DNA of 64,000 nucleotides, taken from a virus. Lineage: Duplodnaviria; Caudoviricetes. The stretch lies in the IMG/VR virus record IMGVR_UViG_2821731843_000002. One strand, given 5' to 3'. A program made the translations under genes and the position numbers. Below are positions 16,200 through 26,542 of the stretch, one piece after another. The notes under the pieces were generated by a model that saw only the letters and a list, made by a program, of their open reading frames with translations, searched no databases and had not been told where the DNA came from. Within the stretch, counting starts at the first letter, position 1. The number at the start of each line of letters is the position of its first letter.

Positions 16200-18327
16200 T
16201 CAACCGGCGTCGTCCCGTTTGGCAAATTCTTCTACTTTCTGAAAACCGCGATACTCGGGCAGCTCGATGTAGCTGCGCAGCCAATCGGCCTCGCCACTGC
16301 CAACCCGTTTCCCGGCGTCTGATTTCGCGATGATGTCTTTGGCGTCTTGGAACCGCTCTTTGGGGGTTGAAGCGGGTTGAAACCGCCCAACGGCCTTGGG
16401 TTTTGGATCTAATTTCGCCTTGTCCTTCACCCGCTGCTCGAAGGCTTGCCGCGCCTCAACCACTACTGGATCTGACGTGACCTGATGGCGAGGAACCGAC
16501 ACGGTCTTTTGCTGAAAACCGGTTTCACAACCTTGGCTTCAACCAATTCCGATTGCGTCGCCGCTCGGGCGGTCCTGTCGGCGGCAATCTCTTGAACGGA
16601 CAGAGGGCGGTGGGCCTTCAGAAGCTCCTTTTGTGCTCTCTTGATCCTGTGATTACGGCGTTCAACTTCCTTGGCCCCGGTAACGTTGAAGAACCCGACT
16701 GTTTGCCGACATTCGGCAAATCCGAGGTAAGACCCGTCGAGCTCGTAGATATGAACACCGGAATGCAGATCCTCTGGATCAAATCGGGCCACAATCTTTT
16801 GCCAGCCCGCTCAGACATCCAGTCTGAATGATAGAAGTTCCTGAACAGTTGGAGCTGGCCGTTGTCCTTGTTCAGCTTGCCGGTCTCTTGACCCATCAGC
16901 CAAAGGCGACGTTGATCCTCGGTTGCCTTGCGGATAGGGGCTGTGGCGTAGCTCTCCGCAAATGTCTCGTCGAAGGATCGCCCCCGTGCAGTAGGGGACA
17001 ATCGGCCCTCGCGTAAATTGTGCTCCTCAACTCCTTCAGCCACAACCTTCACAAAATCGTCTAGAGGGATCGCACGATTGCCGTAGTTTTCGGGTTTGGC
17101 ATCTGGACGGTTGCCAGTATAAGCGCCGTCAAAGCGGGGTCTAAAGCGATGTCCTTTGCAAAATCCCGGAACCCACGTTCAATCGGTTTAGATTGGCCAC
17201 TTGCGGGCTTGGCCCAGTGAACTTGAATGCCCAGATTGGGAAGCACACCAAGGGGATCGTCTTTGCGCACCTTAAAGCGAAAGCGGTTCGGAATGCCGCC
17301 GGTGAGCCATTTACCGGTAAACTCCCGTCCGTTGTCGAACAGGCAATGGCTAGGATGCCCCAGGTTTCGACCAATTCGCCAAAGGCGGCCATGACCATTA
17401 CCATGTTGGGTGAATGATCGATGCGCCAGCTCAACATCTTGCCGGAATAGAGATCCTGGAAGGCAACGATCTGGGGCCTGTTTATGGTGCCGTCGGGCCA
17501 GCGCACGAAGACGTCAAACTTGTGGCAATCGGCGTTAACGCCTTCGAGCGCCGTCAGGGTGGTACGGTCCCGGATCTGCGCCGGAAAACAGCGCAACAAG
17601 CCCGCAAAACCTTCACGGGCCAACACTTGGCAAAGGCGCGGTACTTCATCGTCCAATCGCCGCTTTGCAGTCTTGCTGATCAGGATGTCCCAACCCTCAT
17701 GCTTGGCTTTTTGCAGGCAGCGCGATAGCATTGGGCAAATGTTGGTGGTCCTTGGCGCAGATAATCGCTTGTTAAATAGTCCATAAACGCTTGGGTGCAG
17801 GCCGCCTTATTGGGCTTGCGAACAGCCAAACGGTTACGCGGCACCAGATAGGCCAGGCGGTCCTCAGGGGCGACGCCTTCAACCATGCCGATCCAGTTGT
17901 AGACACTGCGGGCAGAGGAGCCACATTGGCGCGCGGCCTCGGCCACGGCGTGAACATGGGTAACGCCGGACTGGTGCAGACCTTCCACCATTTGCAGCGC
18001 AGCCAGCCGGGTTCTAGCCTTGGTCTTTGCAGTTTCCGGCAGGCTATCAAATGCGGCCCAGGCATTGCCCCGGTCCGGGCGTTCGTCAGGGGTCTCAGCG
18101 GCATCTGTCAGCAGCTTGCGCCGTGCTGCTAAGGGCAACACCGACCAGTGATATATCCAGCCGCCACCGCGTCCAACCTTGCGCTTGGCGCAGCCTTCAA
18201 TGGCGCGCCAGCCGAACCGCTGTGCCAGCAGGTTTATGCCTGGTTTGCTGCCCGGCAGTTCGGGCAGGCCAGAGTTGGCCAGCTCTTCAACTGTCCACCA
18301 GATCTGTTTGGGTTCAACGACGCTCAT
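16200..18327 (-). pseudogene. MuA-like DDE transposase with five -1 frameshifts as sequenced
   Basis: Fragments align to 61504-63636; NADCHKFD, FDNGREF, SKPIERGF motifs. Confidence 0.85.
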
Positions 18328-18331
18328 TTGG

Positions 18332-19240
18332 TCACCCCGCCCGTTTGCTGGTGAAGGGGACGATTTCGGCATCTGTTTCCAGGGCTTCGTCGCTAACGAC
18401 TAGGGCGTCTTTGCCCAGTAGCTCCAGCAGCTCGTCGCGGTGATCCTCGGCAAACCTCCGCCGGGCTTCTTTTGGGGCCCGTGAATAGGCGTCGTTTAGT
18501 TTTCTGCGCGCTGCCTCAACCGGGTCTTTAACTGCAGTTCCGGGGGATTTCTTACGGGCCAGAACTTCCTTGGCGGATTTGGCGGTGCCATCGCCCAGGG
18601 CGCGACAAATGTCATACCGATCCGTTGTTGTTCCGCACTTGGCTATCTCTTGCAGGTCGGAAAGGGAGACCCGCTTAGGAGCGTCTCGGAGTTCTTGGAT
18701 TTCACGGGGGCCAAGGGACCGGCCCGCAGCAACAAGGCGGCGAACTGTGCGCTCGTCGACGCCCATTTTGTCGGCTGTTGCGGTTACAAATGATACGACG
18801 GACATGTTGTCCGCCGTATCCCAACGTTTTGCGACCAAGTCTGCCCCGGTTGCTGCTTTTGTCTCAGGATAGGCCCGTTCATACACTTCTTTGCGACGGG
18901 CAAGGAATACTGCCAAATCCAAAGTGTTAAGTTCGGCATGTGCCAGGTTGTCGTCGATCTCGGCGAGGTCTGCCCAGTCGTCTGTGCAATCCCAGACCTT
19001 GGCGGGGATTACATCGCGACCCAGGGCGCGAAACGCTGCCATCCGGTGACCGCCGGCAATCAGCCGTAGCTTGCCGGTTTTCTTGACTTTGCGGACTTGG
19101 ATCTCGGACATCAGACCTTGGGTCTCAATCGAGTGTGTCAGGCTTTTAACAGCCGTTTCAGACACCGGGCGCAGTCGGTTTGATGTGTCGATGTCATCAA
19201 GCGGGATTTCTGTAACTTCAATCAGGCGTGGGGGACGCAT
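18332..19240 (-). CDS. ParB/Srx N-terminal domain protein
   Basis: SIETQGLMSEIQV and LIAGGHR motifs; AEIDDNL. Confidence 0.85.
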   Translation of the reverse strand: MRPPRLIEVTEIPLDDIDTSNRLRPVSETAVKSLTHSIETQGLMSEIQVRKVKKTGKLRLIAGGHRMAAFRALGRDVIPAKVWDCTDDWADLAEIDDNLAHAELNTLDLAVFLARRKEVYERAYPETKAATGADLVAKRWDTADNMSVVSFVTATADKMGVDERTVRRLVAAGRSLGPREIQELRDAPKRVSLSDLQEIAKCGTTTDRYDICRALGDGTAKSAKEVLARKKSPGTAVKDPVEAARRKLNDAYSRAPKEARRRFAEDHRDELLELLGKDALVVSDEALETDAEIVPFTSKRAG

Positions 19241-19695: not shown

Positions 19696-19973
19696 CGAAA
19701 AATGTCTCCTGCTAAAAGTCCAATAATGAGTGTTATGAAAAGTGAGGCTGCGCCGAGGATCTCGCCGAGCCAGAAAAGGGCGGTGCCAAACCAAGCGCGT
19801 CGGCCCCAGCGTCTCTGCAGTAATGTGCAATGGCTGGGGCCCGTCTCCGCGAGTGTTGGGCAAGAATACAAAGCCCCCAGTGGCGCATCCCCATGGCCAC
19901 CGGGAGAGTTGTCCAACCGGGCCCGAGCAGGAGCGTGGTTGGATTGGGAGTGAGTGTGAAAGGCATTTAGCAT
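19692..19973 (-). CDS. Small putative membrane protein
   Basis: C-terminal hydrophobic helix; overlaps both neighbours in operon style. Confidence 0.4.
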   Translation of the reverse strand: MLNAFHTHSQSNHAPARARLDNSPGGHGDAPLGALYSCPTLAETGPSHCTLLQRRWGRRAWFGTALFWLGEILGAASLFITLIIGLLAGDIFR

Positions 19974-20329
19974 TGGGCAGCACTCCTGGCGCTACGTTGG
20001 CTAGGTCGCCGACCAAGAGAGAGCGCCACTCGTTGGCGCTTGGGGCCGTGAAGCTCTTCAACATAGCCGCCATTCGACTTTAGGTGCGGCAGTACGTCGT
20101 GCTCTGGGGCGTCTACTTGATACCCAAGCGTGTGCAGGACGAGGCGAATAACTAACACAGATGGGTTTGCATCTTTGCCTTTGGCATCTTTGTCGTTTGC
20201 AAGGCGCCTTAAGTGCCTGCCAGTTATCCCACAGGACCGACCGAGCTCCTCATATGAAAGCTTTCCGAGCCCTTTGTTCTGGGCAGCGACTTCTTCACGT
20301 AAGAAGGCCGCGAATTGTTGTCCGCTCAT
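19967..20329 (-). CDS. Cro/Ner-like HTH regulator
   Basis: LSYEELGRSCGITGRHLRRL HTH; divergent from repressor. Confidence 0.65.
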   Translation of the reverse strand: MSGQQFAAFLREEVAAQNKGLGKLSYEELGRSCGITGRHLRRLANDKDAKGKDANPSVLVIRLVLHTLGYQVDAPEHDVLPHLKSNGGYVEELHGPKRQRVALSLGRRPSQRSARSAAQC

Positions 20330-20377
20330 TTGAGGCATCTTTGGGTCCGCTATCTTCGGTTTGATATGTCTGAACGT

Positions 20378-20393
20378 TAGAAGTAAACTTCTA
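20378..20393. promoter_or_regulatory. Candidate repressor operator TAGAAGT-AA-ACTTCTA
   Basis: Perfect 7-bp inverted repeat between divergent cro-like and repressor genes; extra half-site ACTTCTA at 20430-20436. Confidence 0.55.
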
Positions 20394-20498
20394 TCAGTTC
20401 AACCCTAAAAGTCTCAATTTACGACAGATACTTCTATTTCGCCGTAAGCCGCACAACGCTTTCGGACTTATATTTCCGTTTGCAGGAATTATTATTCC

Positions 20499-20858
20499 AT
20501 GTATGTTGAGGCCATGATTGGTGCACTCGATAAAAAACAACCCACTAAAAATGGGGAGGTGGAGCTCTGGAGAAAGCGCCTGCGTCAGGCGTTGGAAGTT
20601 CGGGGTTTGGATTTTGACGAAGTGTCTGAAGCTGCTGATTGTAATCGGGAATATGTATCAAAAATGCTTGCGGGTCGGTTTAATCCGACTGTCGCGCGGC
20701 TGATGAGAATTTGTGACGCCGGAAAGATAGATATGGCGTATCTGTTTTCTGAAGAGCCGAGCGAAGAGGAGCGTAATGTTCTTGAAAAGGCTGCAAACTT
20801 GTCCAAGGACGATGCTGAGCTAGTCAGCCGGCTCATTAAGAGCGCCAGATCGAATTAA
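20499..20858 (+). CDS. Prophage repressor candidate, XRE-family HTH, no S24 peptidase domain
   Basis: EVSEAADCNREYVSKMLAGRFNPTVARL HTH; divergent from early operon; only 119 aa. Confidence 0.75.
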   Translation: MYVEAMIGALDKKQPTKNGEVELWRKRLRQALEVRGLDFDEVSEAADCNREYVSKMLAGRFNPTVARLMRICDAGKIDMAYLFSEEPSEEERNVLEKAANLSKDDAELVSRLIKSARSN

Positions 20859-20981
20859 TTCGACCTTCCTAATGGCTTCTTTGAATATTTCTGTGCCTAA
20901 ACGTGGCGACTCCCGGTTGGCCTTGATTACCTGGTTCATGATTTTTTCTAAAATGTCTGCCGTCACTTGATGCTGTTTCAT
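20820..20981 (-). CDS. 53-aa helical protein divergent from luxR and convergent on the repressor
   Basis: ATG 20981 with AGGT upstream; coding status unproven. Confidence 0.45.
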   Translation of the reverse strand: MKQHQVTADILEKIMNQVIKANRESPRLGTEIFKEAIRKVELIRSGALNEPAD

Positions 20982-21000
20982 AATTCGACCTAATATTGGC

Positions 21001-21016
21001 TTATCACTTGTGATAA
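21001..21016. promoter_or_regulatory. Palindrome TTATCAC-TT-GTGATAA between small ORF and luxR
   Basis: Perfect 7-bp arms in the 88-bp divergent intergenic region. Confidence 0.45.
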
Positions 21017-21069
21017 TCGTATAAAGCGATAGTATCGAGAGCATTACATATCAAACGTGTGTGTCCAAT

Positions 21070-21693
21070 ATGAAAAGTGATATAAAAAGTTTTCTATTCA
21101 GAACTCTGGAAGAACTGTCAGACGGCGGTTATTCAGTGGGTGTTGGTTTCCAAGGAGTGGAACCGCATTTCGTCAAGTCGACCTATTCGTCAGATTGGGT
21201 TGAACGATACATCGAACAAAACTTCATTAAACAAGACCCAACAATTCAGTTTGGTCTATCCAGGTCAGCCTACGCTACTTGGGAAGACCTAGAGAAATTG
21301 TACCCAGATTCGAAAGGCTTTTTCGCTGAGGCAAGGGCGTTTGGTTTGCTACGGGGCAATACCCTATCAGTATGTGTTAGAGGGCAAGTTTCAATTCTCA
21401 GTTGCTCTGGGGCACACTGGGACGATGCTGTATTGCGTACCGCAAGTGCGGCCCTTTACGGCTTGGCAGTATTGGTTGCGGACGTAGACACCAACAAATA
21501 TGACCCGTTGTCTCCTCGCGAGAAGGAAGTTCTCAACCTCATGACTACCGGGTCGAAGGACCAAGAGATTGCGAACATCTTGAAAATTAAAGTTGAAACT
21601 GTCCGCGCTCGAAGACGAAGCGCCTTCCTGGCAACCAACACGACTACGATTGGCCAACTTATGTCAGAAGTGATAAAAAAGGACCTCATTTAG
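21070..21693 (+). CDS. luxR: LuxR-family AHL receptor (autoinducer-binding domain plus HTH)
   Basis: Conserved W/Y (DWVERY), DP (QDPT), W and G of the AHL pocket; LSPREKEVL...G...EIA HTH. Confidence 0.88.
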   Translation: MKSDIKSFLFRTLEELSDGGYSVGVGFQGVEPHFVKSTYSSDWVERYIEQNFIKQDPTIQFGLSRSAYATWEDLEKLYPDSKGFFAEARAFGLLRGNTLSVCVRGQVSILSCSGAHWDDAVLRTASAALYGLAVLVADVDTNKYDPLSPREKEVLNLMTTGSKDQEIANILKIKVETVRARRRSAFLATNTTTIGQLMSEVIKKDLI

Positions 21694-21754
21694 GAGTTCT
21701 TTGTTTCCAAAAGAGTGATGGTCCACAAAATGGCGCTGCAAGTTGGAGAGCGCC

Positions 21755-22438
21755 ATGCGATTACACACATTTTCATTTCTAGATCAATATCATCACGGTT
21801 CCATTTTTTCTGATTATCTCGCTTTGAGATATAGGGCATTGGTCAGAAAATTAGGCTGGGACCTGTCACATGATGGATCGGTGGAAATGGATCAGTATGA
21901 TCATCCAGGTGCAGTATTCTCGGTCGTTACTTATCAGGGCAAAGTGATCGGTGGAGCGCGTGCATTGCCGTGTAGCGCTTCATGGGGAGGTTGGTCCTAT
22001 ATGCTGAAAGATGCATCATTGGGTAAGCTTGGACGAATACCAAATGATCTATTGTCCGAGTATCCCAACGCTGGCCATACGTGGGAAGGTACTCGCCTGG
22101 TAATGGACGAGACAGTTGAGTCGGCACAGGTCCGCCTGATGGCAATACGGTTGGTTGTGTTTGGGCTCTGCAAGTTGGCCAGTAAAGGTGGTGCTGAAAC
22201 AATAATCTCTTTGTCTCCTTCACCATTTGGCCGGTTGTTGGGGGTTATGGGGTATACAGCAGTGCCAATTGGTCGGGAATACATCGGCGAGGAAGACAGT
22301 CTATCATACCGCGCCTTTTCAATGCCGTGCAATCCGCTGATAAATGCGGATGTATGCGCAGGGCTCGAAGTTATATCTGCTCGGTCTGAACAGCTCTTTA
22401 TCCCTGGAGGAGAGGTCACCTACCTGCAGAGAGTTTGA
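21755..22438 (+). CDS. luxI: LuxI-family acyl-homoserine lactone synthase
   Basis: LRY..LV..LGW, EMDQYD, GGARALP, YML, WEGTR motifs; the conserved F of RxxxF is L here; GGAG RBS before ATG 21755. Confidence 0.85.
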   Translation: MRLHTFSFLDQYHHGSIFSDYLALRYRALVRKLGWDLSHDGSVEMDQYDHPGAVFSVVTYQGKVIGGARALPCSASWGGWSYMLKDASLGKLGRIPNDLLSEYPNAGHTWEGTRLVMDETVESAQVRLMAIRLVVFGLCKLASKGGAETIISLSPSPFGRLLGVMGYTAVPIGREYIGEEDSLSYRAFSMPCNPLINADVCAGLEVISARSEQLFIPGGEVTYLQRV

Positions 22439-22455
22439 AACGGTACTCTCCCATA

Positions 22456-22562
22456 AATGTCGAGAGCGGCCCTGACCTGCCGTTTGTGCCATATCCGTCT
22501 AACGGCAGTTCCCAGCCCATAGCAGTCATTGTTTTTCGGCACATCGGGCGGACGCCGCCGTT
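22456..22562. repeat. Cluster of three degenerate ~30-bp palindromes
   Basis: 22456-22484 AATGTCGA...CTGCCGTT; 22501-22530 AACGGCAG...CAGTCATT; ~22533-22562 ending CCGCCGTT. Confidence 0.6.
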
Positions 22563-22729
22563 CGCTGCAAGTGCAGTGTTTTTTGGACAGCGCCGCAGAA
22601 GCAGCCACTCACACTATTTTTTTTGGAGCACGTGAAAGCAGCTCTCTTTGCAAGAACTTCAATCGCTTTCCTGAAAGCTTTAGCTTTAAGGCATTTTTCC
22701 GTGTTGCCTTAATCTAGATGATTTGCGAA

Positions 22730-24439
22730 TTAATCTTCTGAGAGTGGATTAACTTTGAAGCGTCTTTCATCCGGCGAATTCCCTGTTTCGTTTGAGTAAG
22801 TTTTTATGAACTCACGCGTATCTCCGTCGTATGTAATGCTACCATGCAGACAGACGCTTGCAACCTTGGGGCTTTTCACTCTCATTCTCTCAAAATGTCT
22901 TCGTGTCCAATCAAGCACGGCTAGTCTGAGGGGGTTTTCTTGTTTGCCATAATTCTTATGCCGTTGATCATTCAGACCCAGAACGTTGAGGCAGAATCCT
23001 AAGTAGCTAGCGCCTTTGAAGTTGTAGAATTCATCCATTCGGCGAATTTCTTGGTAGATTAACCTTGCTACCCTACGATGTATCCATTTGCTGGTTTTGC
23101 TTTCGTTGAAATGAAAAAGCCGACTCCAAACTGTGTTGTGAGTGACGCTCCAACAAATATCGACGGGCTTTCGCACTTGAGATGCTTTGAAGATCAGATC
23201 AAATATGAGGTCCGCGAGGCGTTCATGGAAGCCGTTATTAAATGTGTCTTCTGGTTTGAGTGAAGACCAGATCTCGACGTCCTTGTCGTCAAGAAGTTTC
23301 ATTAGTGCACGCAAAAAATCCACAAGTACAATGAGTCTGGCGTGTTCGTCACGCTGGTAGTATCGACTGTCATCGTCGTTAAGGTTGTAAAGATCGTGGA
23401 CCATGCTTTTACAGTTTTCCAAGATTTGGTTCACAGCGAAGCTATCCATGCCATCTAAGCCGTGTGGCGACTCTCCCAACAGGCGCTCAATGTATAGGAG
23501 GCTGACGCGCGTATAAGCTTTCCAATTTTCCGCATCCCATTCGTCACGAATATTGTAGCGTGGGTCCAATGGTGAACTGTGTCTATTTGACAGTGACCGG
23601 ATCAGCTTGGGGTTGGCGAAAATTGCGGAGCTGTAGAGCTGGACGTAACCGGACCAACCGGAATCCCAACCACTATCTTCATGGAATATGGGGGAAGTTT
23701 TGCAGCTCAGAAATTCAACGGAGACATTTTGTGCAAATGTATGAAATGAAATTCCCGCCTTATCCTGTGCTGAGACTTCATTAAAAATTGCCTCTGCTGT
23801 GTTTGGTGCAAAGCACGCCATTTCTGCACATACCCTACGATTTGCAAGCAACAACAAAAAATCATGAGCGATTTGTTCGGTTCGGCTCAAATTCCACGGC
23901 GTTCCTTTCTCATTTGGGGGAACCGGTGCAAACTTAATCAAGCTATGTGCCGAGCGTGCTAATTCATGCAGCGCAATCCTTAGCTCTGTGTCACCTTCAT
24001 GGTGAGTCGCTCGTTGGTAGAACCAAAAGAACCGGCGGCTGTTCCAACGTGAAAACTTCGGGGGGCGGATATATGAGACGAATACCCAATAGAGTATTGC
24101 TAATACGCAGGGTGCGAGCAGGAAAGAGTCAATTACAAGGCGGTCGTCCATCACAGGCAACAACGGCCAGCCGTTGTAGAACCACACCTCAGCTAGCAAT
24201 TTCAGTACAAAAACTGCCACGAAGAGCCAGAAGCTAAGTTGATAGACAGGTATTGGAGCGAGTGAGAGTCGCAATTTGTTTCTATAGTCCGATATGGTGT
24301 ATATCACCAAAAGTAACGCAAGCGCAGATAGATAATCTGAAACGCCAAAAAGTGACTCTGAACCAGATGATCCGGCGGCAACCCAGCATACCTCAAACTC
24401 GTAGTATGCGTCCTTTAAAATCTCTTTGCAGGTCTGCAA
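22730..24439 (-). CDS. AT-rich hypothetical protein with ~3 N-terminal TM segments and large soluble domain
   Basis: 569-aa ORF; true start uncertain; no motif recognised. Confidence 0.7.
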   Translation of the reverse strand: MQTCKEILKDAYYEFEVCWVAAGSSGSESLFGVSDYLSALALLLVIYTISDYRNKLRLSLAPIPVYQLSFWLFVAVFVLKLLAEVWFYNGWPLLPVMDDRLVIDSFLLAPCVLAILYWVFVSYIRPPKFSRWNSRRFFWFYQRATHHEGDTELRIALHELARSAHSLIKFAPVPPNEKGTPWNLSRTEQIAHDFLLLLANRRVCAEMACFAPNTAEAIFNEVSAQDKAGISFHTFAQNVSVEFLSCKTSPIFHEDSGWDSGWSGYVQLYSSAIFANPKLIRSLSNRHSSPLDPRYNIRDEWDAENWKAYTRVSLLYIERLLGESPHGLDGMDSFAVNQILENCKSMVHDLYNLNDDDSRYYQRDEHARLIVLVDFLRALMKLLDDKDVEIWSSLKPEDTFNNGFHERLADLIFDLIFKASQVRKPVDICWSVTHNTVWSRLFHFNESKTSKWIHRRVARLIYQEIRRMDEFYNFKGASYLGFCLNVLGLNDQRHKNYGKQENPLRLAVLDWTRRHFERMRVKSPKVASVCLHGSITYDGDTREFIKTYSNETGNSPDERRFKVNPLSED

Positions 24440-24616: not shown

Positions 24617-24707
24617 AAGGTAAGTATGAACCGTCCGCTCGACTTTGCAAAGTGCTCTATCTGCGCATAGCTGTCCTTGGAGCCGATGGCAGCGAATGGC
24701 CGCATAA
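24617..24707. repeat. Cluster of three degenerate ~30-bp palindromes, last one truncated
   Basis: 24617-24646, 24649-24678 (AAAGTGCTCTATCTGCGCATAGCTGTCCTT), 24685-24707 (GATGGCAG...GCATAA, cut off). Confidence 0.6.
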
Positions 24708-24847
24708 TGTTATGGTTCCCCCTAATATCGCTTTCTAGTTCCAGCATTAGAAATGGCGTACTAAATTTCCCTACCGCCATGATTTAAAACAACCTTTCTA
24801 TATCTAGAAAGTCGTCACCGAACAAAAAAGGCGACTTTCTAGTTCCA
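24708..24847 (-). other. Candidate right end (attR) of prophage B with repeated transposase-binding motifs
   Basis: Starts TG; CTTTCTAGTTCCA at 24731-24743 and 24835-24847; inverted CTAGAAAGTCG at 24804-24814; partial CTTTCTA at 24794-24800. Confidence 0.5.
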
Positions 24848-25148
24848 AGGTGCAAAAGTCGCTGTAATTATGAGCGTTTGAAGTATCGGAGAAGGGCACT
24901 AGCCTTATTATTATGGCGCTCTGGGACGCTGGTGGAATTTGCAGAGTTTGGTGTCCCAATATCGGCCTATTGGCGTTTAAAGCCTGTTTTGAGCCTTTTT
25001 GAAAGACACGCGTCCAATCTGCCCTGGTCACGCTCGGTTGCCTCAAACGCCCTTGTTTTTAAGACTCTATCCGGCTTCTTCCGCCATCTTCCGGGCTCTT
25101 CCGGTTACTGCAATAACAAGTGTCCAACAACAAGCGCTGAGACATCTT

Positions 25149-26361: not shown

Positions 26362-26476
26362 CGGTTCCTCAATTTCATATTGGCTAAGTTGACTAGTGGC
26401 CTGCTGGCTTCAGAAAAACACAGAATAGAAAAACTTAATTTGCGCTGAATCTCCAGGCACACTTTAAACGCAAGTG

Positions 26477-26498
26477 GAACGGGGTTTAAACCCCGTTC
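26477..26498. repeat. Perfect 22-bp palindrome GAACGGGGTTTAAACCCCGTTC downstream of formyltransferase
   Basis: Self-complementary; no U-tract on the minus-strand side, so terminator role uncertain. Confidence 0.6.
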
Positions 26499-26542
26499 AA
26501 AAGCTCCTTTTTCAACGCTTCAAACGCACTTGCCCTAGGGCG

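Follow-up and report, generated by a model that had tools for sequence, protein, structure and literature searches.

A Mu-like prophage of a marine Parasedimentitalea carries a probable member of a phage-encoded LuxR-LuxI lysogeny switch family and a conserved 53-codon gene

Phage-encoded switches that both make and sense an acyl-homoserine lactone (AHL) have been described by Bunsick et al. (bioRxiv, 3 July 2026, PMC13345283) for Phage A, a member of the Mu family, and Phage B of Phaeobacter inhibens T5T. Both phages contain a counter-oriented hth gene and an operon of xre, luxR and luxI. The two LuxIs each produce an AHL of their own, and LuxR together with this AHL (and, in Phage A, with XRE) switches on PLysogeny, the promoter of the operon that encodes it. 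In lysogens, PLysis, from which hth is transcribed, is shut, and inhibition of the phage signal leads to lysis and virion release. Such modules were found in 53 of 93 Roseobacter prophages, where they are swapped as cassettes and are at times kept in cryptic prophages. Parasedimentitalea marina W43 is included in the list of multi-luxI genomes of that preprint, and its prophage table contains no Parasedimentitalea. Here, we describe a corresponding locus in a stretch of 64,000 nucleotides (IMG/VR record IMGVR_UViG_2821731843_000002), called the window in the following, which represents C1:1692125-1756124 of the 5.08-Mb genome, in five contigs, of a marine Parasedimentitalea. We conclude, with a probability of roughly 0.75, that the locus is the immunity and decision cassette of a Mu-like prophage and belongs to the Roseobacter-group hth/xre-luxR-luxI switch family. 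This assignment is based on the same phage type, gene order and orientation, and on the fact that all four proteins are 46-60% identical to those of a Phaeobacter locus.

A first-pass annotation had described positions 20499-22438 as a repressor gene, a small divergent open reading frame (ORF) and a luxR-luxI pair, and had proposed that they form a candidate self-contained AHL lysis-lysogeny switch. The switch itself is no longer novel, as it has been preceded by the July 2026 preprint. A complete luxR and a complete luxI do abut the immunity gene as annotated; both are intact and are part of the immunity region. The module extends beyond the annotated range, because it also takes in the divergent hth gene at 19967-20338. 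It has the following features.

19967-20338, minus strand: hth, 123 amino acids (aa), lysis-side regulator gene divergent from xre and first gene of the swapped low-GC cassette (ORF).
20339-20513, no strand: putative divergent promoter/operator region of hth and xre (alignment of 10 modules).
20499-20858, plus strand: xre, 119 aa (114 aa if started at 20514), regulator in the repressor position (Pfam, PHROG).
20820-20981, minus strand: 53-codon small open reading frame (smORF), convergent with xre and divergent from luxR (homologous ORF in 12 of 12 modules).
21001-21016, no strand: palindrome TTATCAC-TT-GTGATAA between smORF and luxR (kept in 11 of 12 modules).
21070-21693, plus strand: luxR, 207 aa, AHL receptor and transcription factor by its domains (Pfam Autoind_bind and GerE).
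21755-22438, plus strand: luxI, 227 aa, AHL synthase by its domain (Pfam Autoind_synth, phrog_31881).

All five reading frames, including that of the smORF, are intact. The hth gene is counter-oriented, and xre, luxR and luxI lie together on one strand; a sequence scan revealed no terminator-like hairpin between xre and luxR. Comparison with homologues and with published primers indicated that translation most likely starts at the ATG at 21070 for luxR and at the ATG at 21755 for luxI, and possibly at 20514 for xre.

In agreement with the first-pass annotation, the 119-aa XRE protein contains HTH_3/HTH_26 only, and the Pfam search yielded no S24 domain; it matches phage repressor PHROGs. The canonical cI/Cro or c/Ner regulators are not present in the module, and there is no separate cI. 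The hth product had no match in Pfam, PADLOC or NCBIfam. LuxR contains Autoind_bind (1.6e-14) and GerE (9.9e-9), and in a HMMER alignment with CviR the ligand-pocket residues W, Y, D-P, W and G as well as E, L and G of the DNA-binding domain are kept. LuxI contains Autoind_synth (1.8e-6) and matches the phage family phrog_31881 at 1.6e-21. In an alignment with TofI the residues R, W, D, D, R, E and R are kept, while F28 is replaced by L and S103 by T. The kept key residues support the view that LuxR and LuxI are likely to be functionally intact. A second, distant luxI (29% identity) and another luxR are encoded elsewhere in the same genome.

The comparison with Phage A was made via the Phaeobacter locus L052, a close relative that was matched to T5T Phage A by primer-encoded LuxR termini: the L052 LuxR starts with MINDIMR and ends with LVIKYGLI, as do the termini encoded by the Phage A primers. 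IMG/VR contained no exact match to the primer for the start of luxR in T5T Phage A. The proteins of L052 are 58% (hth), 60% (xre), 50% (LuxR) and 46% (LuxI) identical to those of the window, and the window LuxR is 49-50% identical to the Phaeobacter Phage A-type LuxR cluster (P0014), to which the L052 LuxR belongs. Parasedimentitalea huanghaiensis CY05 has the same arrangement in a Mu-like prophage with an intact MuA; the identities are 74% for the Cro-like hth protein, 75% for XRE, 65% for LuxR and 64% for LuxI, and this match assigns the window to the genus. The same arrangement was also found in an IMG/VR Mu-like contig, in two Phaeobacter genomes and in several metagenome contigs. The order MuB-MuA-ParB-...-hth followed by xre-smORF-luxR-luxI is common to all of these; in the Phaeobacter genomes and metagenome contigs, hth is preceded by complete or partial genes for MuB and a MuA-type transposase, then by ParB and two to four small genes. 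Across the related modules, xre is 36-76% identical, and hth is 35-74% identical in 10 of 11. In the remaining module, G339, tblastn yielded no hth match, and there is only an ORF of the same size in the same position. The cassette was found in other Mu-like phages when it was sought in relatives; it is absent from the neighbouring prophage B, which has an unrelated XRE gene and no luxRI.

In a tree of 46 LuxI proteins, the 12 LuxIs of the modules formed one clade (support 99/97), which was sister to chromosomal LuxIs; the arrangement luxR-luxR-luxI was found in 23 of 27 of the latter that were sampled. The window LuxI grouped with those of P. huanghaiensis and of the metagenome-assembled genome (MAG) G007. 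It is 64-76% identical to the LuxIs inside this subclade and at most 55% identical to module LuxIs outside it, and under the 80% rule of the preprint it is probably a separate type. Searches with the cassette DNA gave no match in deposited phage genomes, and protein searches of these genomes yielded only distant LuxI and LuxR proteins, in Acinetobacter, Aeromonas and other phages.

Two further loci differ in their luxI genes. In Phaeobacter L057:5591-7072 (JAYMTY010000030), no luxI was called after luxR, and tblastn gives a 47%-identical LuxI over 201 aa; either the gene caller missed luxI or the gene is damaged. In a different Mu-like phage, IMGVR_UViG_2788500356_000003, a luxI with 35% identity shares the strand of the ParB-MuA-MuB operon, and a search with the window luxR as query revealed no luxR there. 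It represents another way of joining luxI to a transposable phage.

The first-pass annotation had left it unproven whether luxRI lie inside the phage end. This could be settled by reading the ends of the element, called prophage A, from the genome sequence; the right tip was located by a motif search and then by the target duplication. The following features of prophage A lie on either side of the module.

16618-18372, minus strand: MuA-type transposase of prophage A (Pfam HTH_Tnp_Mu_1/2 and DDE_2; tblastn finds pieces).
22563-22578, plus strand: terminator-like hairpin 3' of luxI (hairpin prediction).
22730-24439, minus strand: 569-aa cargo gene in a variable slot between luxI and the left end (phrog_25374 at 2.7e-49).
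24641-25132, no strand: conserved left-end segment of the Mu-like element, ending ...GTTACTGCAATAACAAGTGTCCAACAACA at 25132 (shared sharp boundary; terminal inverted repeat).
25133-25137, no strand: left copy of the 5-bp target-site duplication AGCGC (right copy at C1:1678534-1678538, directly before the right tip TGTAGCC...).

The first base of the right tip, TGTAGCCGGACAG..., is C1:1678539 and lies 13.6 kb ahead of position 1 of the window; the last base of the left tip is C1:1717256, corresponding to window position 25132. The element is 38,718 bp long, its tips are TG... and ...CA, and AGCGC directly flanks both ends. The left tip and the right tips are terminal inverted repeats of each other and have the motif GGACA-N4-TTATTGCAGTAAC in common. 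The segment of about 490 bp at 24641-25132 recurs distal to each Mu-like element of the genome, and in all copies, in this genome and in genomes of the same genus, it stops at the same base, ...GTGTCCAACAACA. The sister element P0 has the same end arrangement with the duplication TTTGG; the right end of prophage B was not found by the tip and duplication search. We also considered that the left-end segment might be an unrelated repeat. This was rejected, as the segment forms an inverted repeat with the right tips and matching duplications were found for two elements. Because of the TG...CA tips, the AGCGC duplication and the resulting 38,718-bp element, hth, xre, the smORF, luxR, luxI and the 569-aa gene are all inside prophage A.

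The genome contains four full Mu-like prophages and one remnant, only one of which carries the module. P0, A and B form a tandem row, and one full element and the remnant lie elsewhere. The early region of prophage A is 98.6% identical to that of P0 and 94% identical to that of B. This DNA homology ends at about 19954-19960, where the stop codon of hth is located. At the position of xre, P0, B and the element near 2.70 Mb each carry an XRE gene that is unrelated or only distantly related, and luxRI are missing from all three. The cassette is therefore an exchangeable unit between otherwise near-identical phages, as homology stops at about 19960, the sisters have unrelated XRE genes without luxRI, and the GC content is 47% in the cassette versus 57% in the backbone.

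By analogy with the published modules, the following mechanism can be proposed. Lysogens would transcribe xre-luxR-luxI from a lysogeny promoter in the 175-bp divergent region, and LuxI would make an AHL that reports lysogen density. LuxR-AHL, probably together with XRE, would activate the same lysogeny promoter in a positive feedback, and the opposite lysis promoter, which would drive hth and the early transposition operon (ParB-like, MuA, MuB), would be kept shut. A fall or antagonism of the signal would let the lysogeny promoter collapse and would start the lytic and transposition programme. We infer the control direction, the identity of the AHL and the pairing of proteins with palindromes only from the homologous modules. 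The idea of the first-pass annotation that the phage makes and senses its own AHL, in an arbitrium-like manner, has been borne out experimentally for the homologous Phaeobacter modules (PMC13345283), and by analogy would apply here as well.

The smORF at 20820-20981 had been noted in the first-pass annotation as a 53-aa ORF that is divergent from luxR and overlaps the 3' end of xre. It is indeed present, and turned out to be widely conserved. The overlap with xre comprises 39 nt and is antisense and codon-phased, as read from the window sequence. A minus-strand ORF was found in the same place in 12 of 12 modules, always overlapping the 3' end of xre, and the overlap was exactly 39 nt in the seven modules compared by coordinates. 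Its length is 53 codons in nine modules, and 54, 55 and 59 codons in the other three. The nine 53-codon copies share 43-73% nucleotide identity with one another, and their differences are most frequent at third codon positions, followed by first and second positions (0.64, 0.47 and 0.36, respectively). The ratio of nonsynonymous to synonymous substitution rates (dN/dS) is about 0.2-0.4 in unsaturated pairs. Judged by its presence in 12 of 12 modules, its codon-position bias and its dN/dS ratio, the 53-codon ORF is a real, conserved gene of the module family under purifying selection.

Little can be said about the product from homology. It had no match in Pfam, PHROG, PADLOC or NCBIfam, and a profile search of 1.84 billion representatives yielded only 17 proteins, almost all of 53 aa. 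AlphaFold2 predicts a generic two-helix hairpin (predicted local distance difference test score, pLDDT, 78.6), and a Foldseek search with this predicted structure yielded nothing below E = 4. Neither the smORF nor the palindrome is present in the type D module on plasmid pGal_G40 of Phaeobacter gallaeciensis, and a keyword search of the text of the preprint of Bunsick et al. (PMC13345283) gave no mention of either. Our best guess is that the product is a small helical anti-regulator, whose gene would be kept silent by transcription running through from the lysogeny promoter and which would be produced only while this promoter is weak. Tentatively, and at somewhat less than even odds, we propose that all Phage A-type switches, very probably with that of the studied Phaeobacter phage among them, have the smORF as a fifth functional component, and that it encodes a helical anti-regulator of XRE or LuxR that is made when read-through from the lysogeny promoter stops. 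For Phage A proper, the presence of the gene is presumed from its close relative.

The palindrome TATCAC-N2-GTGATA between the smORF and luxR is likewise kept in 11 of 12 modules, and it occurs once in the window, versus 0.02 occurrences expected by chance. In 10 of these 11, the distance from its centre is 27-29 nt to the smORF ATG and 60-63 nt to the luxR ATG; the outlying distances are 23 nt (smORF ATG) and 73 nt (luxR ATG). After it come a -10-like element and a luxR leader, both of which are conserved. Probably, two back-to-back promoters share this palindrome as an operator. With respect to the putative luxR promoter, it would be centred near -33 or near -48, depending on the -10 hexamer that is assumed. 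The usual position of a lux box is -42.5, which the palindrome on the luxR side does not fit.

The divergent region between hth and xre also contains candidate regulatory elements. A perfect palindrome, TAGAAGTAAACTTCTA, is present at 20378-20393 and occurs once in the window, a second TAGA-N8-TCTA-like site lies near 20426-20437, and the 10 aligned modules contain two or three TAGA-N8-TCTA sites in this region. A promoter-like site was found at 20361-20389. A near-invariant block of 42 nt (20464-20505) includes a -35/-10-like pair just before the second xre ATG, and the xre mRNA could start at or near this ATG.

Several points weigh against the assignment to the switch family or against the proposed mechanism. 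The Pfam score of LuxI is low (28 bits), and two conserved positions are changed (F to L and S to T). The transposase is split in the assembly and, if this is real, the switch controls a phage that is unable to replicate. The promoter-like arrangement and the conserved operator directly upstream of luxR might give luxR-luxI a driver of their own. The control direction was taken from a relative at only 46-60% identity, no RNA runs for the locus are listed among the public sequencing runs, and the role of XRE already differs between the two T5T phages (PMC13345283).

The split transposase leads to the alternative that fares best, namely that prophage A is dead and no longer transposes, and that the cassette serves the host, either as an extra AHL channel or as a decoy that forces related phages into lysogeny. 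Pfam searches recognise MuA and MuB domains in prophage A. Its MuA gene has five 1-nt deletions (window positions 16507, 16796, 17135, 17352 and 17707) in comparison with the copies in P0 and B, and MuB has one 1-nt deletion (15899), which is shared by A and P0. The preprint reports that luxI/R modules are kept in cryptic prophages and proposes such a use (PMC13345283). Two of the relatives are also consistent with retention of the module for the host: MAG G007 has kept luxI with a truncated luxR, and the G339 module, which is possibly a domesticated orphan copy, has no phage genes within about 10 kb. The latter module, of the same family (L045:11071-13596, G339:C22), has all five genes and lies between genes for an NRPS-like (nonribosomal peptide synthetase-like) adenylation protein and a TctABC transporter. 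Against this stands the nature of the deletions. All of them are in homopolymer runs, and the sister copies are intact at those sites; because they are single-base homopolymer losses inside a three-copy repeat, they probably represent consensus errors of the assembly. The only public run with related sequence, a seawater metagenome, covers parts of the MuA/ParB region and none of 20480-22500, and a near-identical contig from it has an extra T at 17707. Furthermore, the genes for terminase, portal, MuF, protease, major head protein and endolysin are intact, and the ends and the duplication are perfect. We regard a dead prophage as unlikely, with about one chance in five.

An induction switch of the opposite sign is even less probable. 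In this alternative, LuxR-AHL together with XRE would activate the smORF via TATCAC-N2-GTGATA, the product would inactivate XRE, and a high AHL level would lead to lysis. The geometry is like that of modules of a transcription factor and a smORF (TF-smORF modules), in that a small orphan gene is counter-oriented to a phage luxR across a conserved palindrome; moreover, the gene is under purifying selection and is always co-inherited with the tail of xre. However, in Phaeobacter the homologous modules respond to the cognate AHL with activation of the lysogeny promoter, and inhibition of the signal induces the phage. In addition, a palindrome centre 23-29 nt from the smORF ATG would suit an operator within or downstream of a promoter rather than an activator site, and if a phage made its own inducer, every dense culture of its lysogens would be unstable. 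The route via LuxR to antirepression or antisense interference that the first-pass annotation had put forward differs from the published mechanism of the module family, and AHL would be expected to hold lysogeny and not to induce, because LuxR-AHL activates the lysogeny promoter in homologous modules.

An ordinary host quorum-sensing island adjoining the prophage, for which the low GC content and a repeat element of the host genus after luxI might speak, is refuted by the mapping of the ends, as a conserved tip and a target duplication lie 2.7 kb beyond luxI, the same cassette occupies the same place in other Mu-like phages, and no syntenic host context of the region was found among 40 relatives.

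Some further observations concern the surroundings of the module. The repeat element after luxI has a length of 50-90 bp, occurs in the window at 22445-22532, 24634-24704 and 26464-26527, and looks like a REP-type (repetitive extragenic palindromic) intergenic repeat; many copies are present in the host genome, and it is also found in other genomes of the genus. One copy lies directly after luxI and one just inside the left-end segment of the phage. The 569-aa protein has hydrophobic N-terminal segments. Its family, phrog_25374, is of unknown function, the protein had no match in Pfam, PADLOC or NCBIfam, and the protein atlas gave hypothetical clusters only. In related phages, the slot of this gene is occupied by a TPR/glycosyltransferase-41, DUF2855, HD-domain or AF_1680-like protein. 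P0, A and B are arranged head to tail in the same orientation at C1:1641524-1771555 (window -50600 to 79431); the left tip of P0 and the right tip of prophage A are 16 bp apart, and a partial duplicate of the right end lies upstream of P0 (C1:1641480-1641600). In P0 and B, 11-14 kb separate the repressor gene from the conserved left tip. The genes found there (L001:1700-10540 and L002:1200-13700) are those for ABC transporters, a phosphonate-binding protein, a racemase, GntR/WYL/DtxR-type regulators and a WD40 protein of 1108 aa; the stretch represents either a very large cargo or captured host DNA. Prophage B would be about 51 kb long.

Should the family membership hold, the locus would extend lysogen counting by phages to a new host genus and a new signal type. 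With one module among four full Mu-like prophages, the genome is a natural test bed for the competition of co-resident phages that has been proposed. The most useful outcome is the conserved small gene with its operator. If the smORF works as proposed, models of the published switch miss a component; it would render the switch bistable and unite, in a single cassette, the designs of TF-smORF induction and of xre-luxR-luxI lysogeny.

Four known systems can be compared with the locus. The arbitrium system of SPbeta-like Bacillus phages (AimR/AimP), to which the preprint also draws a parallel (PMC13345283), has the same logic, as a phage-made signal reports infected cells and favours lysogeny; its signal is a peptide and its receptor a TPR protein, and there is no homology to the system in the window. 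In phage VP882, a quorum-sensing receptor of the phage likewise lies beside a small divergent gene (VqmAPhage-Qtip). The first-pass annotation had called this receptor LuxR-type, which is inexact: it is a VqmA-type receptor that binds DPO (3,5-dimethylpyrazin-2-ol) and not an AHL, there is no synthase, and the signal leads to lysis. The true precedent for a LuxR and an XRE protein that drive a small antirepressor is not VP882, but the Aeromonas phages Apop and ARM81ld (Silpe et al., Nature 2023, PMC10432266). They share with the window a phage xre-luxR pair, a counter-oriented small orphan gene and an induction route that is independent of SOS. However, they have no luxI and sense the C4-HSL (N-butyryl-homoserine lactone) of the host, which leads to lysis, whereas here the phage carries luxI. 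In these phages, the smORF is located upstream of xre and its product inactivates a cI that is encoded separately; here, the small gene is found between xre and luxR, and a separate cI is lacking. In addition, they are linear and plasmid-like, with the genes beside par or repA-telN, whereas prophage A is Mu-like and transposable. The closest likeness is to the T5T Phage A-type switch, with which the locus shares the phage type, the position at the repressor end, the gene order, the orientation, the lack of cI, Ner and S24, and the nature of an exchangeable cassette. The differences are that the window is from Parasedimentitalea and that, here, a smORF and a palindrome are described between xre and luxR.

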